A stretch of 64,000 nucleotides of DNA, taken from positions 62,001 to 126,000 of the forward strand of contig BAAIJX010000049.1 of assembly GCA_054600435.1 (NCBI GenBank), given 5' to 3'. A program made the translations under genes and the position numbers. Source of the DNA: Neophaeotheca triangularis. Taxonomy: Eukaryota. Shown piece by piece: positions 951-26,310 of this stretch. Every line of letters starts with the position of its first letter. The stretch's first letter is position 1. The notes below the pieces were generated by a model. It did not search any database and was not told where the DNA came from. It saw only the letters and a list, made by a program, of their open reading frames with translations.

Positions 951-3900
951 ACTAAGAGAATAAAGGGGAATTTACTATAAGCGTCGTCACACGCGTCTAG
1001 CGAAGACTAGTACTTGTCCTATTAGCTCGCTTAAAACCGATAGCTACTTAGTAAGACCCGATTACATAGCCCTTATAATACTACCTTATAATCCGTAACC
1101 CTACCTTTTCTCTACGAGAATTAGTCTAGTCGGGAACAATTAGGCTTTAAGCGCCTACCCTAGAGCCGTTACTAGATCTTATAGAGTTCTTAATCGATAT
1201 AGCCTATTACCTTTTAAACTTCTATAGTAACGAGCGGAGATCTAAGGCTATCTATAGTAGGAACCTACGGATATAGTCTATAGCTAACAGAATTGTCGCT
1301 AGATACCCTCGCCCTAATAAAGACTATAGAGAGTTCGGTTTCCCTCCGTAGTAGTATATAGACAAGACGTTAATTAACCCTAAAGTGAAAGACCTACTTA
1401 GCGCTTATAAGGGAATTAAGTACTACCCCCTACTTAGAATCGACGAACCTAGCCCGGCGATTATAGGAGTACTAGTAGCTACCTACGCCCTACGACGCCT
1501 ACTATCTAAATCTACGGTAAGGATACCTTCTAAAAGCTAGGCAACTGTCCTAGTAACCCCTAAGCAAACCCCTCTCCTAGAAAGCGAAAGCCTACTTAGT
1601 TCTACTATTAGCGACGACATCGTCTAGAACCAAAAGCCAGTTTTCGCTAGTTTTAAGTCTATAAATCACTAGACCCCTTTACCTAAAACCGAAACCACTC
1701 CCGTAACTAAGAACTTATCGCGATCCCTATCGCCTATCTCTAGAGAGTTCTATAAGGAGCTATATACATTTATCGAACCCTCTAGGCCTACTATTACCCT
1801 CTCTAAACATAACCCTAAGCCGGGTTATATTACTACTCTCCTACGTAGCATTCTACCTCTATAAGAGCCTTTTACTATTATGGCATTAATAATAGAACCT
1901 AATAACAACTAGGAGTACGACGACTATTCCCCCGAGCCCGGGCCTAGTAATAGATAAGGGAAGTAGCCTACTAACTACGCCCCGTAAATGCTTAACCTTA
2001 CGATAGCTACTCTCGACGATATAGTTAACCGCGCTATTACGAACGTAGCGTAAGAAATCGACGCGAGGGTAGAGAGCCGATTCAAGCCCTTTAGGTAGTA
2101 ACTTAAAACTACTAGAGAGACTAATAATAGTACTCGTTAGGTAGACCGGATAGCTGCTAGAGCCCGTAGTAGAGACATAGTTAAAAGTCACTAGGACGAT
2201 TAAAGCACCTAGGAGGATAGAGACTATCGTAGGGAAAGTAGCCGACCCTATAACACTTCCTAGAACCGCCCTAGTAAGAGCGACTACGCTTAGTACTCGA
2301 ATAGGCGGCGCGACAAACCTAACTATGCCTAGTACTCGAACGGGCGGCGCGACAAATCTCGCTAGGGAAAGATATCGGAGGAGCGCCTCCGTGTAGTAGG
2401 TTTTCCTCCTAGCGATTACTAATAGGTAAGCTATCCTAGAGACCTAGACCCCTCCGATTTAGACCCCGAAGGTAGACTATATAGCTAGAGAGATAGGCGC
2501 GGCTATAATAGACTACGAGGGCAATCGAGAGGCCGCTAGGACTCCTACTACCTAAGGTCTCGTTTGCGCTCTAGATCCCACTACCTAAATTTTTTTAAGG
2601 TAGAAGAGATCGGTTTCTTCGACCCTTATCTTTCTATAACCGAGGCGCTAGCCGGCGATATAACGATGTATTAGAATAAACCCTATTTTAGATAAGTCTA
2701 CTTTTTCATCTAGGCGGCCCGTAACTATACCGTAGTTAATAGCTCCTTAGGTATACGCCTCTAGCTTAGTAAGTGTCTACACGGGGGAGCTAGTTAATAG
2801 TTTATAGTATAGCTAAGTAAAGCAGAGAGAAATTTCATACATATAGGGCCTAGCATTAAACGTTAGGAGGTAGCGCTTTATAACAAATACCGCGTCTTAG
2901 TGACCACTACTATAGTAAAGCTGTCGGCCGAGTCCTTTACCCGTAACGACATACGTGTAGAGCGGGCTCCTTCGGAGTTCGTACTTAGCTATTATCGCTA
3001 GGCTTTAGAAGCGAGAATCGATAGTTTAGAAGCCCGCCTAGCATAATGCTAGATAAGGATTAATAGGCAACTCTACTATAACATTAATAAACCTAACGAC
3101 CGAAGTACCTAGGAAGAGATAATAAGGGACATAGAGGACGCGATAGATATATAGAGGGATCTATACCCTCCTCGTACCTTTCCTACTAATAATAACTATA
3201 AGCCGAGTTTTGCCCCACGAGGGAATAAAGACAATAGTAGTAGTCGAGGTAATCGCCCTAATAGGCGGTAGGGGTCCGATAATAGCCGTGACTCTAGTAA
3301 TCGCCGTAATACTAATAGTAATTAGTAGCGATTTTTCCCTTAGCGGTACTTCGAAAACGTAAGCGAGCGGGGAGCTTAGACGTAACCCCTACCCCCCTAA
3401 AGAGAGTTAGGTTCGAGTGACTTAGCCTAGTAGGCCTAGACCCCTCGATAGGGGTAAAACCGCTAGAACCGACCTAAGCCTACTAATTACCATTTAGCTA
3501 GTGTCGAAGAAGGAGAGGAGCAATTAGACGTGGTAAAGGATAATGTTACTAGCGAGGAATCCGCGGATAAAAGCTAGCCGGACGAAGTACTAGTGAACTT
3601 TAACGATGTTATCTACTACTCTAAGGGCGATGATTACTATATAAGTAGCGACCCTATAGACTACTACGTGTCGGAGGCTTTACCCCCTAAGCTCTTAACT
3701 CTATTAGTAGATAGGGCGCTACGACCTCTAGTGTCTCTAGCGCCTATACCGAGTAGAATCTATTACGCGTATTGCCCTAAGACCTTTAGGTCAAAAAACT
3801 CTCTCTATCGTTATCTACGAGCTAAACATAGCTCCCTCTAGTCTACCGGCGTAAAGCCCGTATAACTAGCTAACTACGACACTACGATAATAGCCCTAGT

Positions 3901-6900
3901 AGACCGCGTAGGGGAGATATCTGTCGTTAAATCTATAGCGCGGTCCTTAGACTATTAAGGGTATACTTTCCGAAACTACTACTATCTCTATATTATAATT
4001 CCCCTTTCGTAGTACGGTTAGGACTATACCGTGTGTCTCGACATAGGTATAGTAGTCTCTATAATAGACTCTAGTTTCCTTTCCTAACATTTACCTAACG
4101 CCTTCCGCTATAAGTTTAAGGTTCCTTTCTAAGTCCGAGGGGTTAGTAAAAAGCTCGAGACATGCTCCGAATACATACTCCTTACTTTCTAGATACTTAC
4201 TAAGCGACGAAAGGAACGAATACTATATAAGATAATATACGAGATCTATGTTATTAATAAGCTAAAGCCACTTATACTAGTATCTATAGACATCGCTATA
4301 CCGGAGCTTTTTAAGATTAATATCCTATATAAGATCCTCGAGATCGGAGCGTGTAAAGGAGCTAGAGCGCCCTTACTAGTAAAGCCTAGGGATTCCCCTC
4401 GAGTAGCTTATACTATTAGAGCCCTACACTAGTCGGTCGTGCCCGGGCGAACCCTAGCTAGAGTAGTAATAGTAGTCTGAAAACTCTATAGTAACTAGGA
4501 CTACGAATACTCCCCCCTCTACCTACCTAGCGGTCTTACGGGCTATAAACATGCTATAGACTCTAATTTTAGTTTCGTGATAATACATAACGACACCCCC
4601 TCCCTAGTCACTCTACTAGCCGAGCGATGTTTAGGACAGCTCTCGGAATAGGAGGAGGAAGATAGGTACTACGTAGACCTAGAGGACTATTACCTCGCTA
4701 GCCTCCTACTAAAAACTATCTTTAAGGGCCTCCCTAATAACGAATAGTATGCCCTCGCTAATAGAATTACGATCTACGGCAATACTAGATAGTTCTAATC
4801 CTTAGAAGGCTTAGTCTATAGTTTTATAGACCTCTTTGTCGATAAAGACTAAACTATCGATATACTAGAGAGTAGGCATATACCTATTTATCTTAAGTAA
4901 GGGTAGGAGAAGGAGAAGCTTTTAACGAAGGGCTATAACCTCTTAATAACTAACCGTAAAGTAGTAGACAAGGTCTTTAATAAGCTTTATGCTTAGCATA
5001 AGATAGAGTTTTTATAGTAGTATACTGCCTTCGGTTTTCTAGTATTTGTTATGTAGAAAACTGTCTATGTCGATAGTAAGCCGGTTAGGAAAGGCCGCGT
5101 AGTAGTCGACATACGGGGTCTTAATAAAGTTACTGTTAAGGACAGCTACCCTTTACCCCTATAAGAGGACCTTCTCTAAGCGACCCGTAGTGCTAAAATC
5201 ATTTCGGTAATAGACGCTATAGCCTTTTTCTATTAATAGCTTACCGTAGTCTACGATAGGTATAAACTAGCTGTAAATTCACACTAGGGTTAAAAAATAT
5301 TTAAGGTCGCTATTATAGGTTTTAAAAACTCGGTGGCGTATATCTAGCGAGAACTCGACAATATGCTTTACGAACTACGCCCCTTTTATAGGGCCTATAT
5401 CGACGACATAGTCGTTTTCTCTACTTCTCTCGAAGAGCATGTATAGTACCTTAGGCGTCTTTTTACCGTCCTTACCCGCTATCGAGTTAGCCTTAGCCTA
5501 ACTAAAACCTTTCTAGGCTTCCTATCTACCTCTTTATTAGGCTAACACGTTAGTAGACTAGGTCTCGCTACTTACGAGGATAAGATTAAGGCAATTCTCG
5601 ACCTCCGTTTTCCGAGGTCCTTAAAAGACTTAGAGAAATATTTAGGACTTACTAGCTAGCTTCGCTCCTTAGTCCTATACTATATATAGATTACGGAGCC
5701 GCTATAGAAGCTTAAGACCTAGCTCTTAAAAGGCGGCCTAGTAAAGGGCTCTACGCGGAAGCGCTATACCGCGATAACCCTAGTAAAATTAGATACTAAC
5801 CGACTATAAGAACTTAGCTATAAGGCTTTCTAGACGCTCTAAAGCATTTTTGCTAATATGCCTTTCCTCTACTACCTTAACCCTACGTAGCGTCTCTACA
5901 TTAACATAGATACCTCTAAGGAATTTAGTTTTAGAGTAGCCGTCTATATAGTAGTAAGCGACCTAGACCCCGTAATAATAGGTAGAAAGGCCGCCTACTT
6001 TACTAGGAAAGATGTCTAACCTATAGCTTTCCTTAGTAAGGGCCTTATAGTAGTAGAGGCGAACTACTAGCTAATAGAGCTTAAGATAGCCGGATTAGTC
6101 TAGGTCCTACGTAAAGCGCGACACCTTATCTAGTTAGTTCCTAGGCTAATAGTAGTGTTTACGGACTATACTACTATAGTAGGTATAGCTATATAGTATA
6201 GTCTAATAATAACTACGGCTATAGGCAAGCTAAACCTTCGCCTCGTTAGGGCTAGCTAGTACCTCTCCTAGTTCGCCCTAGATATAAGGTACCGCCTAGG
6301 GCGTATCTATATAGTCCTAGACGCCCTTAGTAGACTACTTAGTAACCTTACTATACCGGTAGAGACCCTAGAAGTAGACACCCTAGACCTAATAGGTTAT
6401 AAGGAATCCTACTATGTTAGTCACGATGCTATATAGAACTAAGATTAGGAACTACTCACTTTCTATATAGCCCTCGTAGAGCTCGATAACGATTTCAAGG
6501 TAGAGCTAATATAAGCCTATAAATCCGACCGCTTTTAGGCGCCGCGACTAGAGTAGCTATTACTCTAGGAGAAGCGTAGACTAGAGGAAACTAGACGGGA
6601 GACGGCGACTACGGTTTCTCCCCCCTAATCGGCATCTAATACCCCTACCTAGACTAGCGCGTCTAAGGCGGTACTATAGGCGCCCCTAACCCCGGCGTAT
6701 CCTCTTGACATAGAGGAAATTAACCCTAATAAGCTTACTAGAGAGCCGGAATCGGCACTATTAGGACTTAAATTTTTTCTACGAGAAGGTTTAATCTACT
6801 TCCGTGATTAGGAAGACGGTAGAGAGCGACTTTACATACCTAAAGGTCTTTTCAAGGAAGTCTTTAAAATAGCCTATAATAATCACTATTACGTAGGTTT

Positions 6901-8316
6901 CTTTCGCTTATATACTCGTATTTAGGCTAGTTTTTATATCCGAAGACTCCCCTACGAGCTCCGTCTCTACATCGCACATTACCCTGATTATAATGTCTAC
7001 TAGACGTTACGCTATCGCCTACTTAGCGAACTTTAGCCTATATAGACTAGACTAATCCCCTACTATACCTAAACTACGGATTAGGTAGTAGGGCTACTAC
7101 TAACATTAGACGGTTTTAACGTAATACTTACTATAACAGACCGTTTCTTAAAGAAGATTCTACTTGTTAAAGGCAAAAACGAGTAGTTAGCATAGTAATA
7201 GGCCTTAGCCTAGCTAGAAGCCCTCCGAGCTACTAAGTAGAATATCCTAATGATATTAATCGGCGACTAGGACAGACTCTAGTTATCTACCTTTTAGAAA
7301 GCACCTTTTAAGAAGCTTAGTACCCGTTTTCTTACGTCTACTACATACTACCTATAGACAGATAGCTAGTTAGAAAGAACGAACTAGATAGTCGAGATTG
7401 CCCTCTACTTTTTCGTTAACACTAATCCTAATTACTATTAGGATATAGCACTCCCTTATATCTAGTCTACAATGAACAATGCCCGTAACATGGTAACGAA
7501 CGAGATCCTAAACATAGTAATATAGGGTTTTAAATTAAACCTCGACGCGCTAAACCCCCTTATCGAGCTACCTACCTAAGACTACGTTATACTACGCTAG
7601 GTAGCGAGAGATTAAGCTTTAGATTCGCTTATACTAGTAGTAGCGGTTATAAAGGACTACTACGATCGTAGCCATAAGCCGGTTCGTTTCCGTCTTAGCT
7701 AAAGGGTATTACTAAAGCTTTAGAAAGGTTACTCTATCCCTAGTCTTATGTCTAGAAAACTAGCGCTATAGCGGGTAGGACCCTTTATAATCACGAGGGT
7801 AGTAGGTCGGCTTACTTACGAGCTCGACCTACTAGAGGGCTAGAAGATATACCTAGTTATCTCTATCGCCTAATTAGAACTAGCGCCTCTTACCCCCGAC
7901 CCCTATAGGAGGGAACCTACGGAATCGGGCCCGGTCTCTATAGATAATAATAGCATGTACGTCTACTAGATTAAGCGATTAATCACGAGGTATATACGAA
8001 AGTAGGTAGGCAAGGATGTTAAATAGTACCTTATTAAATAGGAAGATTAGGGACTAGCTTATAATACCTAGTATAATGTAGACGACCTAGTAGATACGAA
8101 GGAACTTATCGAAAACTATAAGCGTAACTATCCGGGTACTCTAGGGGACCTTAGTATCCGTCGCTATAGCCCCTAGCATTAACCCCTACCGCTACTACTA
8201 GCCCTTTCCCCCCCTCCTCTAATTATGACCTTAGACATAACCCGCTATCTCGTACTAGTTTTACCGTAGACTCCGATAAGTTAGTATGACCTAGCGGCGT
8301 CGACACTAAGACCTCT

Positions 8317-8474
8317 TACTACGACTAAAGGGTGTAGTACTAAGTGTAAGATGTAAACAAGATGAATAAATGAAACTATCTAGCTATAGAGGTAGAAGTA
8401 GCTAGTCTAGGGCTAGGCTACTACCTTCCCTACTAGACTAATAGGGTAAGGGCTCCCTACCTCCTACTATAATA
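8317..8474 (-). repeat. 3' LTR of element B
   Basis: Near-identical to 21247-21404; adjacent to the polypurine tract on the minus strand. Confidence 0.95.
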
Positions 8475-8514
8475 AACTCCCCCCCCTTAAGAGGCGTATA
8501 TGTCCTTATAGGCT

Positions 8515-9007: not shown

Positions 9008-9290
9008 CAAAAGCTCGTAGAGGGCGATAGCTATACTAGTATAAGCTATTAAAGTACTAGTCTATAGAAAAGCTCGTAGAGGGCTAAAGCTATACTAGGT
9101 AGAGCTGTCAAATCGCTAGTCTATAGAAAAAGCTCGTAGAGGGGCAAAGCCGTACTAGGTAGAGCTGTTAAAGTGCTAGTCTATAAAAAAGCTCGTAGAG
9201 GGATAAAGCTATACTAGGAAGAGCTGTCAAAACGCTAGTCTATATAGAGCTCGTAGAGGGTTTAAAGCCGTACTAGGATAAGCTTAGAGG
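9008..9290. repeat. ~60-bp tandem repeat (~5 copies) in the 3' UTR of B
   Basis: Unit AAAAGCTCGTAGAGGG...AGC(T/C)(A/G)TACTAG...AGCT...CTAGTCTATA recurs at ~60-bp spacing. Confidence 0.9.
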
Positions 9291-9325
9291 GATAAGCCTT
9301 GTTTTAGTAGAGTAGAGGTGCCGTG

Positions 9326-9440: not shown

Positions 9441-9462
9441 GAGCACTACTTATAACCTAGGG

Positions 9463-12400
9463 TTACGGAACGGTACGGGTACGTTTGCTTACTAACTAGG
9501 GAGCATTTATAGGTAGTAGACGCTTATTAGGGCGGGGCGTCTTGTTTAAGCTACGGGGAGGGACGGTCGCCGGCTTAGCGCTACTAGTAGTTACTCTAGA
9601 TCGAGTGTTATAAGCTAGGCCCGCTAGGGTTAGTTCGATAGTAGCTCGTGGCCTAACGGTAGCTCGTAGCGCTATCCTATCCGCCGTTAGTAAGGACTAG
9701 AAGTCTAGCTTAGGAATGTCGTTAGGAGGAACCGGTACCTAGAATAGTTAAGTGACATCTATACTAGAGGCGTTTCCTATAGAGGGAGGGGGAGCGTCTA
9801 GTTGTTTAAAAGCCTAATTGTTCTACGCTATAGTAACCTAAGGGGGTAGGTCGATAACGTTAAGCTCGCCGTAGCGTATAGCGCCGTCCTTTACTAGCTT
9901 AATGTTAGCGGCTATAGCGGCGAGGGTATCGCGCTTAATATTAGTTATTACCTTTAGCTACTCCCTAGCTTCTTCCTAGAGGCGCTCCGATTTAATGTAA
10001 GCGCGCTCGGATGCCTTTAGGGCGGTATAGTATCTCTACGCCGCCTCGTTATAGCCGTGCTAAGAATCGGCTGTTATCTCGTCGTCGATCGGTAGTAGAG
10101 AGTCCTATTAGGCTCTAGACATCATTAGGGCGTTAGAGCTATTAGCGCTTTACGCGAAAGCGCCCTTACGGGGAGCTTTTATAGCTATTAGGGCCTAGTG
10201 TTTATCTTTAACGAATAGGTCGGCGAGTACTACTAGGCTATAGCGCTTCGTAGCTACTATACTAGGGGGTAGGGGCGGTCCGGCGAGTAAGCGATACAAA
10301 GTCGTAGTTATTAGGACGGGGGCGGTACTAATTAAGGGTACTATAGGAGTTAAGTAGGGTAGGGGGAGGCGGAAAGCGTTACTAGTTCTACCTATAGATA
10401 CCGCTAGAGGGAGGGCGGCGCTTACTAGTAGTACATCGTCCTAGTCTTAGGGGGGAGGTAGGTTTACGGTATAGCGCTAAATCGGAAATGGGTCGGTATC
10501 GTAGAACTCCGCGACGTTAGTAAGCTCCCTAATTACCTCTTAGCTAGGGATGCTAGGGATAGGTCTAGCTAGGGCATTACGGCCTTAGAGCTAAACATCC
10601 ACGACCTATTAGGGCACTACTCGGTATACCGGGTTAAAGCTAGCTTACATGTCGAGGTACGTACGTAGATCGTCCTATACGCGGTCTACGTCTACGTACT
10701 CTAGCTAGTCGATTTTAGTCTAATTAACCTCTATATTAGGGTCGTATCTAAAGATAGGTTTCCCTTTCTAGGAGTGATAAGACTTAGATACGCCCGCTGT
10801 ATTAGGGCGTATCTAAGGGTAAAAAACGAGGTCATTAGTGTCGTAATTAATGCGACGGTCGTCATCGTGTACCGCCTCTAAGGTATCGTAATAGTGTTTC
10901 CTACTACTAAGGGTATATACGCCCTAGACGTAAACGTATCGGTAGCGGTTATCGCTCTTAACGTAGATAACCGCTAGTAGGCCGCGGGGACGGCGAATAG
11001 GTAGGGGCAATACATCCTAGTTAAAATTCGCTAGCTAGTTATCGTGTAGGAATCTTTTCGATAGCACTTTGTCTACATGATAGAGTAGTATAAGCTTGTA
11101 CACGTCATAGTCGCTTAGGATCGCGTTCCTAGGCAGGAGGTTCTCGCGAGAGAAATAGGAGTATATCGTATAGTACTAGTAGTAGCCCTATACCTTAGCT
11201 AGGTTAAGCTCGGAGCTAGGCTCCTAGGAGATTTTAGCGCTTTCGGGGCGGGTCTCGTCGTACATAAGAAACTAGTCCTCTACTTTGTCGACTCCGTTAT
11301 AGCGGCGTATAGTAGTAAAGGGGTTTAGGATTCCGCTACCTATAGTAGAGTTAACGAAAGGGGATAGCGACTACGCGTCATGAACTATAAGGCTAATAGA
11401 GCGTAGGACGAGTTCGGTATAACTATAGGGGTCGCTCTCGGTTTTCTAGCGGGCTTCTTAGAGTGTAGAGTACTAACCTTCGGAGAGGACCTTAATAAAG
11501 TAAGAGAGTACTATAGCGAATCTGTCGCCCGTTACTAAAGTCTTTAGGACTTCGAAGGAGTAGAGCTGTCCTAAACGATTAGTTGCCTAGCGCTTATAGT
11601 CTATTATCTTAGCGAGCTCTTCTATAGGGGTAGCTATTTCGGTACCGAAACCACAGAAAATTAAAGAGTAGAGTAGATTAGTAGGCGCGGCGACGACTTA
11701 GTTATCGTCTTCGTGTACAAAGTAGGCGATTACCCCGGGCTAGGCGTTTAAGATATAGTCTACTAGTCGTATATATAGCTTAGCTTGCTTAAGGGCGAGC
11801 TTAGCGATAGCCTACTTATTATAGTACTTAGGGGACTCCTTAGGGTTTTCGCGTTATACGCCTTTACGGATAGCGCTCTAGCGCTTAGTGTCCTGAAAAG
11901 CGTTGTCAATAGTTAATTAAGCTTTAAGAGTAGCGAGGAGTCGGTCGCCTCTCCTATAGCGGGCTACTACCTAGATCGCTAATTCCTATAGGAGGAGGGC
12001 GCTATCGAGGAGGAGCTAGTTAGGTGTTATAAAGCCGATAAGGTAGGCGAAACTAGGCGTAATGGCGACCTTAGCGCGCTTTACATACTTAATCTAGGTA
12101 AGGGTACGCTCCGAAGGGTCCTTTAGGGCTATAGGAAAAGAAGCGCGAAGTAATAGCTAGTACTCTTCGTTTAACTAAGTAAGGCTAGCGAAAAGTGATA
12201 GGCCTATGTAAGCCGCTATAAGCGCTATAGCTTCCGTACCCTAGGGGCTATAGGTAGCTTTAAGCTAGGGTAGTAACGCGGAGTCGTCGTCGAGCTCTAA
12301 TAGGCGTAGGAAGAGTGTACCGCTAAAGAGTAAATCAATTAGCATAAAGCGGAAGTAAGTAAACAAAAGCTTAGCTAAAGTCTATAGGCGAAGGTCTTTA

Positions 12401-12939
12401 TACTTTAGGTTAAGAAGATTAGTAGTAGCCGAGAGGCCGAGAGTGAAAGTGTTTTAGGTAAAAGAGACGCCGAGGTTAGCGTGAAGGAGGACTACTACCG
12501 CGTTTTCAATTAACTAGGCCTCGTAGGGCTAGAATAGTAGCGATAGAGTAGGAAGGGAGTAGGTATCTAGAATCTATAGTCCGTTACACGCGAAGGTGTT
12601 ACGCTAGTAGGGAGACCACTAGGCTAGCGGTAGGTCTAGCTTTTCAATAGACTAGTAGACTACTAAAGGAGCGGCAGGTTAAGAAGTGTCGGCCGTTATG
12701 CCGTTCTCTCCCTATAGGAGGTAAGGGCGTATAGTTTAGGTTAAGTTAGTCTTTTATATATAAAGGAAGCGTCTTAGTGTAAAGTATAGTAAGAGTATAA
12801 GCTCGTTTAGCGTAAGAGCCGCTAGTAGTAGGTAGGCGGAGGTATACTCGGTTTTAGAGATGTTATCGCTAGGTAGTAATAAGTTAAAGTTGTCTAATAT
12901 ATAAGAGTATAAAGTAGGTAGCTAACCGAGTGTTATCAT
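9463..12939 (-). pseudogene. RIP-degenerate extra ORF (ORF3, ~1158 codons) of element B, unknown function
   Basis: One frame from ATG 12939; its translation aligns block by block with 21762-25373 (e.g. LYSFEVLKTL, YFIKVLSEG, IGSGILNPFT, RYVYV*GVYTL, *LEYVDVDRV, PI*RYTVNLP). The end position is approximate. Confidence 0.85.
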
Positions 12940-13160
12940 AGAGAGAAAGTGTTATATAAAAAGGGTGTTATAGTAAGGTATAGTCGTAAGGTAAAGGAGA
13001 GCTTTTTAGAAAGGTATAGAGTTACGTTGTTATTATTATTACTAAAAGCGGAAAGCAAGAAGTTATGCTAAGAAGTGAAAGGTACTACGTTATATGTCGC
13101 CGTAGTAACGGCAGGCATTATCGATAGCGCTAATAAGAATAGTAACGCCGCCGAGATGCC

Positions 13161-16100
13161 TTAGGTACCCCTAAAGGCATAGGTAGCTACCCTCCTAACT
13201 TGCTAGTAGACTTTCGCTCTAGAGCGTTAAAAGGTAGGACGTAGGTAGTAGGTATTAGTTTTAAGGTAGAGCCTCTCCGGGTCTCCTTTAGAAGTAGAGG
13301 GCGAGGGGTAGCGAGTCGGGGTCGGGATAACTACGGTTAGGTATCGCGGCGCTAGCTAGGGTAAGTAAGGGGGATCGAGTCGTAGTTAAGGTAGTTAGCG
13401 GCATCTACCCCTTAGCTTAAGGTCTCCGTCTATACTAGGATGGGTATAGTCGTATTCTACTATTAACTCCCTAGTATCGGCTAAGTCGTCGGCGTTATAC
13501 TATAGATTGTATACTAGGCCCTAATCTTTCTACTTTACTAGATATTGTTTGACTAGCTTACCCTACTAGGAGCGGACTCTTCTTACTAGTAAGCGCTCGA
13601 TTTCATACACTAAAATCCCGTTATCGTCTATAGAGACGGGGCCTAACTCGGCGGGCCTATAGCTATAAGGGTTAGGGGCCTAGGGAGCTAGTTCTAACTA
13701 AGTAATAGAGACTACTAGGTAGATCTTCTAGTGCGGCGGGAGATCGAGCTTATAGGCTAGTCGGCCTACTATTTAGAGTATCTTGAAAGGGCCCGTCCTC
13801 TACGCTACTAACTTTTTCGGAATGAAACTAGGGATAGTATAACCGCGCTAGAGCTTAAGCAAAACTTTTTGGCCGGGTTTGAAGTAGATAGGTTTATGAG
13901 CGCGGTTATACCTATCCTTTATTACGGTAGCTACTATAGCTAGGGCATCTAAGGCTTAGTCCCTTACTACCTGTCTAAGTGTAACGTAATCCGTAGGTAG
14001 GAGCTTAATAAGGGTGTCTAGCGCGTCTAGATTCGTTCTAAAGCCTTAGATAACCACATTTAGAATCTCGTTAGTAGAGGCATTCCTAGCGTTATTAAGC
14101 GTTAACTAGATATAGGGCAGCGCTACGTCCTAAGGCATGTCCGGGTTTAAATTAATAAAGAAACGTATAGCGATCTCTACAGTTTAGTTAGTTCGCTTAG
14201 ACTAACCGTTAGTTTAGGGGTAGTAGGTAGTAGAAGCGAGGAACCTTATATAAAGCCGCCTAAAAACTTCCTTCTAGAAGGCGGAGAGCTATAGAGGATC
14301 TCTATCACTAATAAGAATCATGGGAATATTCTAATCGGCCGTTCGGAGTACTTCTAACTAGGCTACTACCTACTCTAGGGTAGACTAATCTACGCGCCCC
14401 TTAATTAGTAGGATCTTCTTAGAGAAGCGGTTAGTAACTATAAGTAAGGAGTCGTAGCCCGATAGGGTAGGGGGTAGGGCATAAACCTAGTTAGCGGTTT
14501 AAGTATAATATAGAATTAGGCGAACCTCCGTAGGTTAGAGCTCGCCTAGGGGCCTATGTCGGCGTGTCTAGTATAGCGCGTAGTCTAGGCAATAGGCGAT
14601 ATAGCGCTATAGCTCTTAGGATAAGCGGTAGATGTAAAAACTAGCTTGGACGCAGGTATATACCCTAAAGAAACTAGTATAGTAGTGATTATCGTGTGCT
14701 ATCGCGAAGATCTCCTTGAAAATTAAGTAGGGAATGTATAGGCGTTCTCGGCCGTCGGCATTATCTCTATAGTAGATAAGGTCGTCGCGTAAAAAGAATC
14801 GGAGGCCTAACGGCGATAACTCCGGCTCGCCCTCTAAAGCATCCTTAGTCTCGCTAACGACTTCTATAGGCTAAGTAGGGACAGCCTATAGGGTAGTTAC
14901 GGCCTCTTAGGAGGGCGTCGAGTACTCGGTAGCCTTATAGTAGCGGCGCTCCTCCTATGCCTAGAGTTAGCGGAGGCGGGGAGCCTAGTATAGGTCTAAA
15001 CGATAGCTAGCACGAATTTCCTACTTAAGGTCGTTAGCTATTTCTACTAAAGCTACGTAGAAGGCTAAGGGCTCCTACGACTCGGCGAAATCTAGTAAGT
15101 ATTAAGTATCTAAGCTATCGTAATCTGTAGCGCCGATAGAGACGTAGTAGGCTTCCTCGTAGGCTATAGGGTCGAGCATATTAGTAAGAGCTTCCGCTAG
15201 GGTAGCGAGTTTACCGAGTAGGCGGCTTAAAGCATTAGGGACTAAGTAGATACGGCTAGGTCTATAGTAGACGTCTAGGTTGAATTAGGAGACGTATTAG
15301 CTAGCTCTAACTAGCCGGAGGTTAAGCTTATCGGTATAAGTAGTAGTAGTAAGGCTATGTTAGGTAGCGATGCCCGTCACTACTATATGATTAGTGAAGA
15401 TAAGGGTAGGTAGTAGTAATGACTATATGATATAGCGTGCCTTTTATAGAAGCTAAACTAAACTAGCTATTTCTAACTCTATAGGCTAATAGTGACTCTC
15501 TACTAGGGTAAGTCCTTTACTTAAAAAGGCGATAGGCTAGATGTCTTTCCTAGGAAAGTGTAGAGCTTTCGTTCTAGACATGACCGGGTTAGGGTCTCTA
15601 GCTACTATATAGATAACTGCTCTAAACCTAAATTCTTTAGAGGTATCGACGTTAGCATAAAGCCGTCTTTTTAGATTAAGGTAGTAAAGGAAAGGAGAGT
15701 CCTTGAAAATGGCCTATAAAGCCTCGAAAGCAGTATATACCTAGGCACGGAGCTCGTCTATATTAAGAGTAACCTTCGTAGTAGCTAAGTAACGCTTCCT
15801 AGCGTTACCCTTTATAGGGCTACCCTTAAGTAGCTATGTCTTTAAGGCTTAAAGCGGCTAGGTAATCTAGGCGTAATAAGGGACGGCTTGTCGTAACTAA
15901 CTAGTAAGGCTAAGATATTTCTCTAAGTCCTTTAAGGAACGAGGGAACTAGAGGTTAAGTATAGCCTTAATTTTGTCCTTATAGGTAGTAAGGCCTAGTC
16001 TACTAACCTACTAGCTAAGTAAGGTAGTAGAGGGAAATCCTAGGAAGGTCTTAGCTAGGCTAATACTAACGCGGTATCCTTATAGGACGGTGAAGACTTG

Positions 16101-19100
16101 TCGTAGGTAGTCGAGGTACTCGTCGAGGTTAGCGGAAAAGATAATAATGTCGTCTATATAGGCGCGGTAAAATGGACGGAGGTAGTATAGGATATTGTTA
16201 AGCTCCCTCTAGACGTAGGCCACTAAGTTTTTAAAACCTATAATAGCGACTTTAAAAACTTCCTATCTGTAATAGGAGTTAATAGCGAGCTTATAGTAGT
16301 CTTTTACGGTAGTGAGCTACTAGAAGAAAAAGGCAACTACATCTATAACTAAGATAAGTTTAGTACCTTATATTGCCTAAAGGAGGTCTTCTTAGAGGGG
16401 GAGTAGCTAGCTGTCTTTAACTATAACGAGATTAAGGTTACGGATGTCGACGACTACATAACCCTTTCTTACTAGGGCTCTATCTTTATAGACCGTTTTC
16501 TACATAACGAAGACTAGGGAGCCGAAAGCTATATACTCGTAGGACTACTCCATTTTGCCTTACTAGTGTAGTCTATCGTAGGCCTCGTTAAGTATAAGGC
16601 GGTCTAAGGCGTAGAGCGGATACCCCTTCGTAGACAGCTTCTCCTTTTCCTAGCCGTCTTTAAGATAGATAGGTATATAGTAATGTTTAGGGATGTCTAC
16701 GGTTTAGCCTTTATCGACAAATAGGTCGGGGAAGTCGCCTAACAACATGTTAAAAGCTACTACCTATATATCATCGCCGAACACCGTAATTCTATTAGGT
16801 AGGACGAGTTAGTTAGCTATTAGTAGGCCGTTAAAAACGGTTTTAGGTAGGAGCCCTACTAAACAATAGTTATTAGGGCTAATATAATAGCCCTCCTCGT
16901 CGGTCCACTCTATTAAACGGCCGAGGGGCTTCCTAGCTAGTAGCGTCACTAGTTAGAGAGAGTCGTTCCTAATTATCACGAAGGCTAAATTGGCGTCTAT
17001 AGCGTAGTTATATCCCTTTAACCTAGGGGGAAGGCTCGGGCTAGGTATGAAGTCGAAATCTCTATCCGTAGGGAGGTCTATCTAAGCTAAGGGAACTTTC
17101 GCTAATAAGCGCGGCGGAATAGTGACGGGGTGTATAGCTTTTAGTAATAAACCGAGCTTTAAGTAGTCTCTAGACTTAATGAGTAGGGGTACTCTAATGT
17201 TTCCGTAGGCTCTAATAGTCACGAGCTTATAGGGGATATTAATCTTCATTACCTAGGGGGTAATAATGTCTATAGAAATGAGCATTAATAGCTTTAAGTC
17301 GCTAACAATGTATACCTTATAGGTCATTTCGTAGAGGCCCCTTCTAGTAGGGGTATTAGCGAGCGTCTAAAAGATAAGGTTAGCGTACTCGGAGTATATA
17401 TATAGTCGGGAACTAACTCCATGTACCTAGAAAGGCACTTTTAGCTTATAGAGCTAAATGTTAGGTAAATGAGTAGCTAAAAATCGTTTGTCGATCATAG
17501 ATATAATAGCTCCTATATCGAGGTAGATAGAGTAATCGACGCCTAGCTTAGCTAGCTATATAGCGAGGCGAAGATAGTAAAAATTGTAGAAAGCATATCC
17601 TTAATAGTTAGTCCTAAGAGCTAATAATTTAACGACTAGGAGTTCCTCTTCGTACTTAGGTAAGGAAGTCGTTTTAGGAACTTCGGCTAGTTAGGCGGAC
17701 TTAGAGTCCTCTACCGTACTATGTATAAGCTATAAATGCCTATAGAGGGAGTTTCGTGAGCTAAAAGAATCATTGCATTCTAAGCACCTAAGCTTAGCTA
17801 GGTAGGGCTATATAGCTAATGCTAGTCGTAGTGCCGCTAGTGTAGGAGTTATAATAAGGCTAGGGACTAAAGCCTCGTTCAGATAGGCTTAGACTAGGTT
17901 AGCCGAAGTGAGAAATTAGTCGTCGTCGTCGTCGTAGGCGACAATGTTAGCGAAGTTAACCTCTAGGGCGTCCTCCTTATAGTACTCGTAGTCCTCGTAG
18001 TTCTCTAACTCGTCTAGCTCTACTACATGATTATAGTTATCGACCTCGTCATCCTTATCGATATCGGCTAAGTAATTGTTAGCTAGTCTTAGCTAAGTAC
18101 GTAGGGGCGCTAACTAGGGGGGTTGTTTATCCTAGTAAGATTAGCGTTAGCGACCTTAATTCTATAGACGGTTTATGTTATCTTGCGAACCGAACTCTCT
18201 TTAGGTAGGGGGGGCAGTCTAGGGTTGTTATCTCGGTAAGTAATAGTCTACTATGTTTCCTAGAGGTCGAGCCTAGGGGTTAGGGTTAGGGGTATGGCGA
18301 TTATCGCTTCTAAAGTAGTAGTTGCCTATACTATTAGTGTCGATTAGGGGGTTAGGATAATAATGCTTACTTAGTAGGTTAGTAGGGTAGAGGGGGTATA
18401 ACTTAGCCCAAGTATCTATATAATCCTCTATCTTATGTATTAACTCCTCCTATATAGTAGCGTGGTCTAGTTTGTCGATATCTCATCGTAGCTAGGGCTT
18501 AATGCGAAGCTAACACTAAGCTATCCTAGTAGTTAGGCTGTCGATTTGTGCCTCTAAAGCCTATTAGTAGTAGCTTAAAACGAACTTAGAGGGGGCTCTC
18601 CCCTAGCGTATATCTTTATAGGAAAAGAGTTCCTTATTAAGATTAGTAAGTGTAGTCGTGACTAAGACACGGAATTTGTCGCGTAGTGCTATCTCCTAAC
18701 GTTTAATACCGCGGCTACTACGAAGGTAGGCCCTATTAGCGTTAGTAAGTTAGCTGATAAACTACTAGCTCGCGCCTCTATATAGGCATTTCGGTAACTA
18801 CTACCTCGTAGTAGTAGTAGAGTTAACGGTAGAGTAATCCTAGGTAGATTAGAGGAAGTAGTACATAGAATGGAAGAATTATTTGTTCTAACACATAACG
18901 GAATTACCTACTAGTACGTCGGTTGTGACCGGAAGGTATAGATCGAAATAGCCTACATTATTAGCTCTAAAGTTGCCCTAGTAAGAGCGCGAGCATAACG
19001 GGTTTTAGTTACGGTCGTAGTAGGAGTCGCGTCTACTACGGGAGGTCTTACGAGAGCGATAATCTCTATAACGCTCCCTTCGAGAGTATAGATAGTAGTC

Positions 19101-20750
19101 GGAGTCTAAGCTAGAAGAGCTAGGGTCGTTAGGCTCGTCCCTTGCCTAGTACCTAGGTAGGGAGTTATAGGGAATTTGTCGATAGGGGGATAGAGGCCGT
19201 ATATGTCGCTAGGGGGATAGAGGCCGTACATTTACTTGTTCTTCGCTAGCCTAGGTAGAGAGGCCGGCTCTCCTAAGGCGCTCGTCCTAAGGAGGGGCGT
19301 AATGACGAATCTCTCGCTAGAATTTAATAGAGGGTAACGGCTAGTACGAGGCTGCGTTTAGGAGTAGTCTAGGTTGTCCGAGCTTATAGCGGAATGCTTA
19401 AAAGCGCTCGTTAAGATTAGTACTAGCTTTAGAGCGAACTTATATAGTAGTATGTTAGAACTCGGCGATAGAGGTACTTCTTGTCTCTTCTACCGCCTTA
19501 TAGAGTATCTCCTAAATGCTATCTCGTATAATGTAATCTAGCTCTAGATCCCGTTAGGGTTGTTTCCCCTAGGTCCTAGTACTAGGGCTAGCTAGGGCCG
19601 ACTAACGGTCGTCGTCGTTATAGTCGATAGGGCTATTATAGAGGGTGCCTTCCTATCTAGACGTTATTACGACTGTCGATGCGGGTTAGCCTTAGGGAAA
19701 AGTCTAATCGGCTACGAGAAAGGGGAAAGGGGCGTTTCTAAATTCGCTATAAGTGCGCGGAGGTGACTCTAAGGAGGCCTTTATAGTTAGTAAGGCCTAG
19801 GAAGGCTTAGAGGGCGTCGACTACTTAGTCTTTAGTAGGTCTTCGAAACCGGGGTGTTATAGCAGTTCCGGGGGGCTGTCGTCGCTAATCGTAGAGCTAA
19901 CGTCGTCACTTAGTAGTACCTAGATCTCCGAAGGTAGCGTAAGTAGTAGGGGGTACTAGATAGGATTAATAGCTAGGGAAGGGCGAGAATCCTATGTAAC
20001 GGGGGTTTATTAGGGAGCGGTCGCTAACAGGGAATTCTAGGTAGGATTAACGGCTACGGGAAGACGGGGTTCTTCTATAGTAGGGGGTTTTTAGGGAGCT
20101 ATTACAACCTATCTCTTAGGGGCGACTACAACTTTCCTTAGGGTATGTATAGGGCGGCTTTTAGTAGTAACGATAGTAGCTAGTAACCCTATAAGCGTTA
20201 GCTCGGGCGGGTCTAGATAGAGGGCCGGGTAGTAGCGTATCCTCTCGAAAGCTATAAGCAAATCGCGTACTACTAGTATAATAAGTGATTTCTTAATAGA
20301 CTAATTAGTAGGGAAGCCGAACTCTCCTAGGTCTAGGTAATAGGGTAGCTTTAAGTTATTAGGAGGAGGATATCTTAGAGTTAAGGATTCCTACTACAGA
20401 TAGCTTTAGAGCGACCGAGGTAGGAGTAGAAGGCATATAGCTAGTAAGCCGTAAGCACGATTTGTATAGGTAGCTTAGGTAAGGGGTCTAGTATAATAAA
20501 CACGGTTTAATTAGTAAGCGCTCGACTAAACTTATAGGTAGAAAGCGGAGTTAGAAGGCCTTATAGCTTCCGTAATTAGCCGGTTTAGTATAGCGGAAAA
20601 GGGAGGGTAATGTCCTAATGCTAAGTAGCTTAGGTAGAGGGGCGAAAGGGAGTAGTAGTATAGGTACTAAGTATTATAGTGGCTCGGGCATATATAGAGA
20701 TGCTTGCGATCGATACTAGGTCTAGGATTAGTCTCGTATTCTTATAAGGT
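13161..20750 (-). pseudogene. RIP-degenerate gag-pol of B; start approximate
   Basis: GEFGFP (~20320), VGYFD gag (~18950), C2H2 finger CLECNDSFSSRNSLYRHL (~17730-17790), protease (~17520), RT YIDD (~16155), RNase H, integrase, chromodomain (~13450-13615). Its C-terminal peptide resembles that of A; stop at 13161. Confidence 0.9.
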
Positions 20751-20844
20751 AGTGTACCTTCGAACCTAATGTGTATTACTAATCGACTTAGAGTAGTAGA
20801 ATGTCGTTAAGCGGCATAAGGTTAGCTCGAAGCGGCTAATAAGC

Positions 20845-21200
20845 GTTATAGCGCTTAGAGTAGTTCGAGACGAACTAGGGGCTTGCTAACGACTAAGGGG
20901 TTATAGTGACGCCTATAGCGGGCCGAGACGGGTAGGTAGTGTTAGGACGGTAGTGTGGTGCCGAGATACCTAGCGAGGCTCGAGACGACTCCGGCGTGTC
21001 GAGACGACATCACGGTGTCGAGATGACTTTAGGGTGTCGAGATGACTTTAGGGTGTCGAGACGACTATGAAGTGTCGAGACGACCTTAAGGTGCCGAGAC
21101 GACTCTAGAGTGTCGAGACGACTTTAGCTAGTTAAGACGACTTTATCTAGTTAAGATGACTTCGGCGGGTAGAGACGACTTATAGGTTTAGAGCTAGCTA
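20845..21200 (-). repeat. 19-bp-period array (core GTCGAGACGACT on +, i.e. AGTCGTCTCGAC in element sense) in the 5' UTR of B
   Basis: Units such as GTGTCGAGATGACTTTAGG repeat at 19-bp spacing; the core is the reverse complement of that in the 8515-8815 array. Confidence 0.9.
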
Positions 21201-21246
21201 TCTAGTATTAGTGATCAAGGGATCCTTACTATTCTTAGCTACTAAT

Positions 21247-21404
21247 TGCTACGACTAAAGGGTGTAGCACTAAGTGTGAGATGTAAACAAGATGAATAAA
21301 TGAAACTATCTAGCTATAGAGGTAGAAGTAGCTAGCCTAGGGCTAGACTACTACCTTCCCTACTAGACTAATAGGGTAAGGGCTCCCTACCTCCTACTAT
21401 AACA
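21247..21404 (-). repeat. 5' LTR of element B
   Basis: TG...CA termini; candidate PBS (minus-strand TAGTAGCTAAGAA) at 21232-21244. Confidence 0.95.
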
Positions 21405-21761
21405 CCTCCGGTCGACTAGACACTAGCGAGTTATTTAGACTTAGACAAACCCCTATACTAAGAAAGTCTCCCCCTAAGGAGACCTAGGCCGCTAATTTAG
21501 CGTATAGGAGAGGAGGTTAGGAGGCAGACTTGTAGAGCTACTACTAGAGCCTTCTAGAACTCCTAAGACACTTCACTATATCGTCTATTCTTATCGCCTA
21601 TTAGTAGCCGCGTCGTCGCTATAACGACGAGTATGTAGCGCCTAACGCGAGTCTTAGCACTATGTTCTAAAAACACCTCTTCACTTCTACTTTCGGTAAT
21701 AATAACAATACTACAAATTTTTTACATCTCTACTATTATCACTAATAACCTCCTACACCTT

Positions 21762-24700
21762 ATACAATAAGTAACCGTTAAGAGTAAACTAGTCCTTAAC
21801 TATACCCCTACCTCTTTTCTATTAGACCCTATTGTCCTATATAGCGATTTAGAGGGTAGCGAAGACACTCCCTTCATTAACTTTAAGGCGTAATAGCGAG
21901 AGCGTACCTTTTAGTCCTACTTTTAACTTAACGAGTTCGCCGCCCTCTACCTTAACTACCCTAGAAGGTATAAACTCGAGCTCGTACCGGGAGACTCTTT
22001 TACTAAGGAGATAGCGTAGTTAAAGAAGAACGTAGCGGCAGTCCTATTCGTAGGTAACCTCTTCTATAGTTTCACTTTGAAATCCTACGAGCGCGCGCTC
22101 TACGCGACCGCTAACGCGCTTACTACTAACGGCAAACCGGATAATGACTATCGTTTCCGAACCCTTACCTATTCACTTTTTCTGTCCGACTGTTTCCGAG
22201 TTCGCCGAAACAACTAACTTCATAACCTGACTAGGCTTACTAGCGGCGACCTTTTCTATTATCTCTTAGACCTCTATAAGGCGGCGCTAACCTCCGCCTA
22301 CCTATATATCTAGGCCCTCTACTCCGCGATACTAGTAGAGCCTGTCGACGGTTACTCTCTAGGCCCTTAGACCTTTATAGGTGTCCCTAACATATACGCG
22401 ATTTTTTAACGACCTTCCCCTATAGAGTCCGCCGCCCTAGACATCTAGGCTTTAATCACGAAAGAGTTAGATATAAAAGTAGAGTCTACGCGTCCTCTAG
22501 TAGCCTTTTATAGTACTAAGGGTTACACTATAAGAGAGGGACTTGTTAAGATAGGAGTTATTTTAGCTAACGAGATAATCGAAGCTATAGTATGGCGTTA
22601 CGCTAAAGGAGACTTCTATCTATTCGACCGCGAGAACGAAATCTATGACACTAACTATTAGAAAACCTACCTAAGTTTCGAATCCGCCTATAAGTAGGTC
22701 TATAAGAGAAACCCGACATTTGGCGAGGTCGAACTTATCGATAACACTATCTCGCTCCTTACCCTAATCGACTTAGAACTCCTCTACTGCCTAGCCCCCT
22801 ATACCCTCTAGAACTAGCCCGGAGCACTCTACTACCTCGGTTAACTCGGTATAGGTTAGATCATTTTAGAGCTACTCGAGCTAGAGTAGGCCTCGATATT
22901 CTATGCCTTTCCTAGCGATAGCCTCTTACCTAACGCTAAGCGCACTACTATTTATAACTACGAGGATTTGGTAACGGATACCGCTAGAAAGTTATACACG
23001 TTTAAGTACTTAAAGAACCTATATAACCCCGAACGTTTCTAGTTTACAGCTAACTACTTTATAGCCCTTTTATTAGAAGGCTAGCTTAAGTCCTACTAAG
23101 ACGCTATCTTAGTCGACGAACATAACGGATACCCGTACTTTACGTATAGGGCACTAGGACTAGCGGTAAGAGACCTTTACTAAGAAATAGTACATGTTAC
23201 CGTAGCTATAGGAGGCGGATACCCTAACCCTTTTACTATAACGCGCGAAGATACTAATAGAAACGAATATGAGGGCAAATTCTACATACTCTACGAACCT
23301 TTTGCCTATACTATTAGCTAAGCGCCCGAACGTCACTATAAGACAGTCTTAAACCTATCGTAGACCTATCGGTCTAAGTTCTATTTCTATATCTATAGTC
23401 CCTAGGATAAGAATAACCTACCCCCGGCCTATACCGCTTTAGAAGATACGGACGTTCTCGAGTTACTTATCCTATACTACTATGTAGGTACCCTCTCTAT
23501 CGAGTTCCTCTAGAACTACTACCTAGAGTCCTTTTCCTATAAGGGCTAGCTGCTACTAATACGCTAGTAGCGAGGTAGACCCGGTATCTTCTAGATAGTA
23601 GGTAAGGGCTAGAGATACGCTTATATCTAGGGTATTTATACCCTCTATAGTAGCGGCTACCTCTACTACTACCTCGAGTAGCTAAATAACGACAAAAAAC
23701 GCCTTACCTTAATGTACCCGGTAAATAATACCTATATATAGTAGCGCCCTATAGACCCCGCGGGACTAGCCCGCCCCTCTTATAAGGCCTAGGAAAACTT
23801 AAAGGATAATAGAGTTAAGCTCTAGGACTACGACGATAATCTTTAGGTTAGATAGGACCTTATTCGTTAGCTAGAATACGTCGACGTCGACCGCGTTAAC
23901 ACTAGATACTACGCCTACCTAGACTTATAGGAAGCGCTCCTATTAGGATACCTAGAACGAGTTATCCTAGAGAGCGTTACTCTTACCTAGAGCGAGTAGA
24001 AGAACACTACCTCGTAACCTTAGCCCTTAATAGAAGGCCGCGATGTAATCTTAGACTTAGATAGACCGCTAGATTTCTCCTATAGTAACTATTACCCTAT
24101 ATAGCGCTATGCCTTTAACCTACCGCTACCCCTAGGATTAGAAATTATAGTGATAATATAGTATGGTTAGTAGACTCTACGACGTGTCTTAGGGTTAGAA
24201 GCAGGTTTCCGCCTCCTATAGCCTAACTCTAGGACGAGTATCTAGGCGTAAAGGCATACTACCTCGGCTAACCGAGCTTACTAGGCGGCAGAATAGGCCC
24301 GTACCCCGTCTTACGAGATAGGAGCCCTTTAAATTAGTAACCCTATTCCCTTTAGCCTAGCGCCGTAAGTACTCTAGCCCTACTCTACTTAGAACTAGAG
24401 CTCCGATCCGTTCGTGCGATAAGCGCTATAATAGTCCTAGTAGCCTCCTTTCGTTTCCTCCTAATAGGCGTAGCCCGGTGTCGCTTTCGGGTTTAGAATT
24501 AGCTAGGTAGACTACTAGCCCGCGAACTCCTAGTAACTACGTTAATAGACTACTTACTAGTAGAGTGGCCTACCCTAGCCGACGTTTATATTCGGAGCTT
24601 AATAAACGTAGTCATACTAACTAGGTTTCGAGCTATAGTAGAACCTCGCTCCGTAACCGAGTACCTAGGCCGTATAGTCGTAGCTATACTAACCTCTACC

Positions 24701-25373
24701 CTAGTAAGTTAACTAGTAAGGCGTAGCTTACGGGCCCCTCTCCTAGCCGCATGTCTCGTAAACCTAGACTCCTTTAGGACCGTAGTAGTAACGAGCGTAG
24801 CGTGTCGTCTATTTCGACTAGTAAACCCCCGCGGTACTACATAACGGATTAATGTTAGGAGCCCTACCGTTTAGTACTCTATAGCTATAGACGCCGGCTC
24901 CGCCCGTCTAGCTAATTAATTAGCTTATATCCGGGTACTCGTAAACTACTTATAATATAGCGGCTTAAGAGTATACCTAGGCCTAACTCTATTTAGTAGA
25001 GTCTTTTAACGCGGCTCGGGTTTTATTATAATAAATGGCGACTATTAAGGCTATAACGGAATAGGGGATCCGACGTAACGTTATAATAGCCGAATAGTAG
25101 TCTATATAACATGCCTAGGTAACGCTAGTAACCTTCCCCGAACCCCCGTAAGACTAGTTAGACTAGGTAGCGATATAGGATAATACCCCTACTAACGACC
25201 CGTAGATAGATAACCTCTCTATCGACTTCGCTAACCTTTTCCCTACGTCGCTCCTAGACGCTAGTACATTCGACTAGTAATACCCCTACCGTAACCCTAC
25301 TAGGGCTATATGCGAAACCTCTAATACCGCTACGCTATCGTCGCTAGCTAAGAGGAAAAGGGACGGCCTATAA
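21762..25373 (+). pseudogene. RIP-degenerate extra ORF (ORF3, ~1200 codons) of element A, unknown function
   Basis: One frame read over 3.6 kb. About 790 N-terminal codons are homologous to B ORF3. A TAG/TAA-dense tail (inferred Gln/Pro-rich) ends ...AKRKRDGL. The start is inferred from ATA, assumed to be a RIPed ATG. Confidence 0.85.
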
Positions 25374-25789: not shown

Positions 25790-26110
25790 TATCTACTATA
25801 GATTATTTCGAGACTAACTACACTACTACTACCCTCTATAATACGCTAAAGCTAACTAGACTTTTCCTAGTCTATATAACTCGCTAAAGTCGACTAGACT
25901 TCCGCTAGTCTATATAACTCGCTATAGTCGACTAGACTTCTACTAGTCTACATAACTCGTATAGGTCGACTAGACTCCTACTAGTCTATATGACTCGCTA
26001 TAGTCGACTAGACTCCCTACTAGTCTACATGACTCGTACGGGCTAGCTAGACTCGCTAACGTCGACTAGACTCCTCGCTAGCTATATAACCTACGTTAGA
26101 TAGCTAGACT
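25790..26110. repeat. ~38-bp dyad repeat array in the 3' UTR of A
   Basis: Units GTCGACTAGACT-N6/7-AGTCTA(C/T)AT(G/A)AC-N8, i.e. the 5'-array motif in alternating orientation. Confidence 0.88.
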
Positions 26111-26154
26111 CGGGAGGATAGTAAGGACACTACCTAATATAGTAGGGGGGGACT

Positions 26155-26305
26155 TGTTATAGTAGGAGGGCCTACGCTAGCTTAGGTAGGCTTAGGTAGG
26201 TACTACCTCCTTAGTATTGTTTACTTATACTTTAGCCTCGTAGATAGTTACATAATGCCACTTTACTTACACTATATATTAAGACCTATACCCTAGATCT
26301 TAATA
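26155..26305 (+). repeat. 3' LTR of element A
   Basis: TGTTA...TAA(T)A, preceded by the PPT and followed by TSD GCGCC. Confidence 0.95.
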
Positions 26306-26310
26306 GCGCC

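Follow-up and report, generated by a model that had tools for sequence, protein, structure and literature searches.

A probable accessory gene between pol and the 3′ LTR in two nested, RIP-mutated Ty3/gypsy elements of Neophaeotheca triangularis

Two nested long terminal repeat (LTR) retrotransposons, here called elements A and B, lie in the left part of a 64,000-nucleotide stretch of Neophaeotheca triangularis DNA (assembly GCA_054600435.1, contig BAAIJX010000049.1, positions 62,001 to 126,000 of the forward strand; hereafter the window), and each carries after pol a long, broken open reading frame (ORF), ORF3, which is the subject of this analysis. Repeat-induced point mutation (RIP) has heavily altered the leftmost 26 kb of the window, whose right half is gene-rich. 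The RIP indices TpA/ApT and (CpA+TpG)/(ApC+GpT) are 2.46 and 0.22 over positions 1-26305 as against 0.85 and 1.06 in the gene-rich half, the GC content is ~41-47% in the RIPed left part as against 50-57% in the gene-rich part, and the longest open frame within the first 32 kb is ≤185 codons. Comparison of the window with itself gave two direct repeat pairs and a long inverted similarity in pol, and on base-level inspection the repeats were found to be two complete nested LTR retrotransposons within positions 213-26305, both destroyed by RIP. Element A (213-26305, plus strand) is ~13.0 kb long without the inserted element B (8317-21404, minus strand, 13,088 bp), which sits in the pol tail of A. 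The LTRs of A (151 nt each) have 11 differences and those of B (158 nt each) have 6, all of them transitions (11/11 and 6/6). Both elements have direct LTRs and a short target-site duplication, as do Ty3/gypsy (Metaviridae) elements, and in both a G-rich purine tract directly abuts the 3′ LTR. The motif TAGTAGCTAAGAA, a candidate primer-binding site, directly follows the 5′ LTR in A and B alike.

In the gag-pol region, Pfam matches to RVT_1, RT_RNaseH and SH3_Tf2-1 were obtained in this order in a single frame per element (E 1.3e-11 for RVT_1 in A). The integrase core, rve, was not directly detected by Pfam in the RIPed frames of A and B; both pol frames could be aligned with the intact gypsy pol of a metagenome locus (L002) across H2C2, rve, SH3 and Chromo. 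The pol polyproteins of A and B are 49% identical over 2,132 aligned columns. For Chromo, Pfam gives a sub-threshold match in B (E 0.032; 14.6 bits, cut-off 25.1; profile 1-50 of 53) and none in A, while both elements align with the L002 pol through its Chromo domain (867-916) with RIP stops at aromatic positions. From their sequence, A and B are likely to be of chromovirus type. The conservation of the pol frame between A and B runs ~190 residues beyond the chromodomain and across the insertion site of B, which validates the junction at which A has to be rejoined.

In both elements ORF3 is placed between pol and the polypurine tract, within the LTR limits and on the same strand as pol. Comparison of X-masked frames by blastp aligned A 21654-24224 (plus strand) with B 12831-10357 (minus strand) in one collinear alignment (E 3.3e-56) with 249 identities in 870 columns (29%), 58 gap columns and no frameshift, and shifted frame pairs of the region reached an E of only ~3e-9. 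At the DNA level self-blastn (E ≤ 1e-5) found no similarity between the two ORF3 regions, and the pol regions in the same comparison match at 64-67%. All in-frame stops of the aligned segments (50/50 in A and 54/54 in B) are TAA or TAG, and there are 0 TGA codons in the ORF3 frame as against 3-9 in each other frame of the same stretch. Such a pattern of stops is expected from RIP of CAA, CAG and TGG codons. Past the conserved part both frames pass into low-complexity sequence, a coiled-coil-like stretch and then a basic cluster; the low-complexity part of A is very rich in stops at probable glutamine codons, and the ORF3 stop codons (A 25371-25373, B 9465-9463) come right after the basic clusters. 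A preliminary description of this DNA, made from the letters alone, had proposed an extra long RIP-broken frame after pol in A and B with little DNA similarity between the two copies, and the protein alignment, the stop types and the blank DNA comparison bear this out. The collinear alignment which it had put at ~790 codons extends over the 870 columns, all of the motif pairs it quoted are present there, and the low-complexity tails ending in basic clusters (KRKR; KR...SKRTR) are found in both elements. Regarding its coordinates, the ends at 25373 and 9463 are exact and the starts at 21762 and 12939 approximate, as homology to intact relatives begins at ~21876 in A and ~12618 in B.

A profile of the two RIPed ORF3 frames was run by HMMER against 1.84 billion representative proteins and gave 11 matches at E ≤ 1e-3, with 4 at ≤ 1e-10 and the best at 8.5e-33. 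The outside proteins are collinear with A and B from an N-terminal QRK motif, through SIFR, CERxALDxxG, GLAVRD and MGGAKP, a ~220-residue core and a low-complexity and coiled-coil part, up to the basic cluster at the C-terminus. The core motif (LPP..L.D.D ... F..G.P..RRQ.G.P ... Y.Y..G.YTL.GGGH ... W.RP ... VD.DR) is present in both elements, and the likeness extends to the C-terminus, where B reads ...TPRPNKR...SKRTRTVP and the metagenome protein P0004 ...TPRPKKR...GKRPKYM. When a profile of the outside proteins only (n=11) was searched against the six-frame translated window, it matched exactly two places, the cores of A and B, spanning nearly the whole profile in each; the next match had an E of 0.81. 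The homologues have tryptophan in 9-13% of the cells at the stop columns of A and B vs 1.2-1.3% at other columns, and of the 12 stop columns common to A and B one is an almost invariant tryptophan. The named relatives, B0A51_11254 (Rachicladosporium sp. CCFEE 5018) and LTR56_025324, LTR15_010193 and LTR81_003723 (Elasticomyces elasticus), are intact Dothideomycete proteins annotated as hypothetical. The window copies share whole-length collinear homology, the core and the C-terminal basic cluster with the members of this unnamed family, but the members are intact and unannotated whereas the window copies are RIP-killed and only ~20-33% identical to them. Word-index searches for homologues returned only the queries or close paralogues and missed known members, so that they reveal little about the size of the family, and pattern-limited scans of viral_contigs and prokaryote genome_contigs gave no relatives.

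We consider ORF3 to be a genuine third gene of a ~13 kb Ty3/gypsy (chromovirus-type) lineage in Dothideomycete fungi, with a probability of roughly 80%. Lying between pol and the polypurine tract, it is part of the genomic RNA and is copied at each retrotransposition, and since it holds the same place and orientation in elements with pols only 49% identical, it predates the split of A and B. The preliminary description had inferred an element-encoded accessory protein conserved at the protein level, and this inference is supported by the outside homologues, by the RIP stops on conserved tryptophan columns, by the position relative to the LTR and polypurine tract, and by a gene model of Elasticomyces elasticus that joins pol to ORF3. 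The protein of this model, P0017 (LTR15_010193, 1497 aa), has an N-terminus 124 residues longer than that of P0010. Its first 52 residues (MIYLVISIAHLEP...GPVTID...IQSLLDRRI) match B pol 2561-2610 (E 1e-5) and A pol 2548-2580 (E 7e-5), exactly where the integrase SH3 domain ends and the chromodomain starts (in A this part reads IYLVISIAxLE), and from residue 102 it continues with MAYPYFSNNQRKQL, the same sequence that opens P0010 and P0018. P0017 therefore consists of a pol end joined to an ORF3 homologue, which in Elasticomyces places an intact ORF3 close behind the 3′ end of an A/B-like pol and in the orientation of that pol. The joining apparently runs across a predicted intron and is probably an annotation artefact; the splice, if real, would offer a route to ORF3 expression.

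The alternative that survives best is that ORF3 is a C-terminal extension of the Gag-Pol polyprotein, freed by the protease of the element. When B and one copy of its target site are taken out of A, pol and ORF3 are in one frame with a single TAA in the spacer of ~76 codons, the conservation of the pol frame past the chromodomain reaches the ORF3 region, and P0017 shows the two joined. In B, however, the frame of ORF3 is +2 with respect to that of pol, which ends in TGA-TAA (12938-12933), a type of stop that RIP rarely makes. Moreover, three outside gene models (P0009, P0010 and P0018) start with a methionine that lies 8-9 residues ahead of the QRK motif, in P0011 and P0013 an internal methionine precedes it by 5 residues, and a pol Pfam domain is present in 0 of 13 outside proteins. 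We regard the extension as unlikely and ORF3 as likely to be a separate cistron, which is clearly the favoured arrangement; the separate ORF of the preliminary description is thus likely and at the same time unproven, since the ORF3 frame of A is the pol frame.

Several points weigh against taking ORF3 as a third gene. The linkage seen in P0017 rests on one automatic gene model and a match of 52 residues, read from the protein only, and neither of the two short metagenome loci (L001, L002) shows pol upstream of ORF3. The frame shared by pol and ORF3 in the rejoined A, with its one spacer stop, is compatible with a Pol-ORF3 fusion. Transversion differences, a kind that RIP does not make, peak at third codon positions in ORF3 (0.324/0.287/0.413 at the first, second and third positions), which speaks for the gene, but the pattern is weaker than in pol (0.125/0.074/0.329) and the third-position excess is inflated by the protein-guided alignment, which biases the test. 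A start codon is not identifiable in the RIPed copies of A or B; an ATA as the RIPed start in A was considered and rejected, the codon aligned near the methionine of the homologues being ATT, which is not a RIP product of ATG. The function of ORF3 is wholly inferred.

It could also be argued that ORF3 is a gene of the host or of another mobile element that adjoins these elements or was recently captured, in which case the outside homologues would be ordinary cellular genes. The named homologues are all annotated as stand-alone proteins, and the contig of L001 has no pol. On the other hand, ORF3 stands inside the limits set by the LTRs and polypurine tracts, in the same place and orientation, in two elements of well separated pol sequence; it is linked to a related pol end in Elasticomyces; and its homologues are multi-copy, with P0010 on 5 contigs of Elasticomyces elasticus (where P0017 has 85% and P0018 63% identity), 7 member sequences for P0018 and 18 for P0011 (a JGI member). 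We therefore find mere adjacency or recent capture of this kind very improbable. As for the metagenome loci themselves, the L001 contig is GC-rich and non-RIPed, begins inside ORF3 and carries the ORF of P0004. Over 1-2607 of L001 the frame runs upstream of the called P0004 across two single in-frame stops (316-318 and 733-735), which could be due to a pseudogene, sequencing error or read-through, and a ~70-nt tandem repeat (2686-2845) follows just past the ORF3 stop, as in A and B. L002 (1-4499) has only 156 nt in common with the ORF3 of L001 (98.7% identical) followed by unrelated sequence, whose opposite strand carries an intact gypsy pol (reverse transcriptase, RNase H, integrase and Chromo). 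This arrangement reflects either nested insertion into an element with ORF3 or chimeric assembly.

An env-like glycoprotein gene of the errantivirus or Athila type, to which the large size and the location downstream of pol would correspond, can be dismissed as hardly credible, as signal-like N-termini and transmembrane-like segments are absent from all 7 long homologues (maximum 19-residue Kyte-Doolittle mean ≤1.35, N-termini hydrophilic), each of the 7 has a basic cluster within the last 45 residues, and the sole structural matches are generic coiled-coil hairpins. The absence of env-type features had been correctly anticipated in the preliminary description, as had that of any recognisable domain. 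Pfam gave no match in the ORF3 of A, that of B or 13 outside homologues, NCBIfam gave none in 8 homologues, and a PDB sequence search gave none for the ORF3 of B or the core profile. An AlphaFold2 model of the core, made from an alignment of 11 sequences, has a predicted local distance difference test score (pLDDT) of 73 and a predicted template modelling score of 0.74, with residues 40-135 mostly above 85 in pLDDT. This model had no match by Foldseek against the PDB at E ≤ 0.001, none by VIA-align against 48,161 chains at Z ≥ 2, and none in BFVD. The full-length model of P0005 is of low confidence (pLDDT 50) and matched generic coiled-coil hairpins only (Z ~8, residues 829-929); it had no Foldseek match, and its quality is too low to test the helical N-terminal region. 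From sequence and models taken together, the ORF3 protein has ~1,050-1,400 residues and consists of a helical N-terminal region, a ~220-residue alpha/beta core, a Q/P/S-rich low-complexity part, a coiled-coil hairpin and a basic cluster.

The C-terminal basic cluster looks like a nuclear localisation signal, and the product of ORF3, judged by its predicted features, is probably a soluble, nuclear and possibly oligomeric protein. As the product of a third gene, it would probably be made from its own start codon by way of a subgenomic RNA, a spliced RNA or re-initiation, and would then probably enter the nucleus and serve the element there. Among its possible roles are bringing the integration complex into the nucleus, tethering that complex, and countering host silencing. 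A more far-reaching suggestion is that the fungal retroelements with ORF3 form a clade of "complex" elements, each encoding a nuclear accessory factor of its own with a fold not seen before, acting either in counter-defence (against RIP, heterochromatin or RNA silencing) or as an integration-targeting or nuclear-import factor. We regard this as a rather doubtful prospect; if true, ORF3 would be a fungal counterpart of the accessory genes of complex retroviruses.

Table 1. Coordinates of the features of elements A and B in the window
Feature	Position	Strand	Evidence or remark
A target-site duplication, left copy GCGCC	208..212	.	right copy GCGCC at 26306-26310, perfect
A 5′ LTR, 151 nt	213..363	+	LTR comparison; starts TA (from TG by RIP-type change), ends CA
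A gag-pol frame, RIP-broken, first part: RT (reverse transcriptase), RNase H, integrase SH3, chromodomain-like end; cut at 8316 by B	1259..8316	+	Pfam, alignment
B target-site duplication	8312-8316 / 21405-21409		CCTCT / CCTCC
B 3′ LTR, 158 nt	8317..8474	-	LTR comparison
B polypurine tract	8475..8488	-	sequence inspection; AAGGGGGGGGAGTT on minus strand
Tandem repeats, ~59-nt unit, between B ORF3 and B polypurine tract	9009..9303	-	self-comparison
B ORF3, ~1051 codons, 61 RIP-type in-frame stops, end ...SKRTRTVP-stop	9463..12618	-	homology, hmmsearch
B ORF3 conserved core domain	10642..11265	-	outside-homologue profile, E 2.2e-38, 120.7 bits, profile 5-214
TGA-TAA double stop in B pol frame, candidate genuine pol stop	12933..12938	-	
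B gag-pol frame, RIP-broken	12963..20417	-	Pfam, A/B alignment
Tandem repeats, 19-nt unit, in B 5′ leader	20905..21212	-	self-comparison
B 5′ LTR	21247..21404	-	LTR comparison
A pol tail resuming after B insertion, conserved with B pol frame	21410..21654	+	A/B alignment
A ORF3, ~1165 codons, 121 RIP-type in-frame stops, Q-rich middle, end ...AKRKRDGL-stop	21876..25373	+	homology, profile search
A ORF3 conserved core domain	23280..23972	+	outside-homologue profile, E 4.8e-30, 93.4 bits, profile 2-227
Tandem repeats, 38-nt unit, between A ORF3 and A polypurine tract	25817..26017	+	self-comparison
A polypurine tract	26141..26154	+	sequence inspection; AGTAGGGGGGGACT
A 3′ LTR	26155..26305	+	LTR comparison

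The 5′ halves of the elements show further peculiarities. The reverse transcriptase begins ~4.9 kb from the 5′ end in both (A 213-5090; B 21404-16500, minus strand), about double what is usual. From A 2435 and B 19133 onward the gag-pol frame is conserved, a further conserved block lies towards the 5′ end (A 1259-1594 / B 20417-20061), and upstream of the reverse transcriptase B has a weak C2H2-like zinc-finger match (zf-C2H2_11, E 0.0036). This half may hold another unusual coding region. With respect to other copies, the sequencing run X1, which contains the window sequence, has further diverged contigs that cover B including ORF3 (its record 1 spans window positions 11790-12874 with 156 differing letters), and transitions make up the great majority of the differences between copies; the 3′ part of A has single coverage. 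Runs X2 and X3, which bear the same organism label as X1, have next to no 31-mers of B, and almost nothing in them matches 8317-26305 at ≥80% likeness; elements A and B may be strain-specific.

Between A and the gene-rich half lies a very AT-rich stretch (26306-32000, GC 31-35% at 26-30 kb) that is presumably older RIPed repeat debris. Further on, the plus strand has an open frame of 2,122 codons (36392-42760) packed with internal tandem repeats (unit length ~105-320 nt, identity 68-94%), for which the only Pfam match is a sub-threshold one to DPC2. Ordinary fungal genes occupy 43542-63239, namely those for a GFO/IDH/MocA oxidoreductase, a MOSC protein, an MBOAT acyltransferase, an MFS transporter and a nonribosomal peptide synthetase-like protein (59610-63239) with AMP-binding, PP-binding and Condensation domains.

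It is through accessory genes that simple retroelements become complex, and those of fungi are almost wholly uncharacterised. The present analysis shows that in at least one class of fungi retrotransposons carry a large, conserved protein family of unassigned structure, gives dozens of "hypothetical proteins" a family worth naming, and explains why these elements are twice the usual size. The intact Elasticomyces copies form a tractable system for asking what a third gene gives to a fungal retrotransposon, and the interest would rise sharply if the ORF3 protein proved to be a counter-defence or targeting factor. In the literature on extra ORFs of fungal gypsy elements and chromoviruses, on Elasticomyces retrotransposons and on RIP in Dothideomycetes, we found no description of the ORF3 protein family. 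We take ORF3 as a real accessory gene in a gypsy lineage of Dothideomycetes, with conservation across elements as well as species, and as a member of an unnamed family without known fold; that fungal gypsy elements can have additional ORFs is already in print.

Plants and animals provide well-known cases of LTR retrotransposons with extra ORFs. In Athila/Tat/Ogre, the errantiviruses and the bdelloid Vesta/Juno (PMC5408684) the extra ORF lies between pol and the 3′ LTR and is carried through retrotransposition, as in A and B; but their ORFs are env-like, enzymes or lineage-specific unknowns, whereas ORF3 has no membrane features and no detectable relationship to any of them. Among fungi, the statement of the preliminary description that chromoviruses encode only gag-pol and are well under 13 kb is too strong. 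The relevant text of Novikova et al. 2010 (PMC2864245) gives a range of 4.4 to >13 kb for fungal gypsy elements, and the legend of its Figure 3 includes an "add. ORF" of unknown function. These fungal Ty3/gypsy elements resemble A and B in reaching >13 kb and in that some have an additional ORF; the comparison is by description only, as that text gives no sequence or family for it. Boty/BcGypsy1 of Botrytis cinerea, likewise a gypsy element of a fungus, carries the gene brtn in addition to gag-pol (Zhao et al. 2011, as cited in PMC8365987). By the short description given there, brtn is antisense, whereas the ORF3 of A and B follows pol in the sense orientation and exceeds 1,000 codons.

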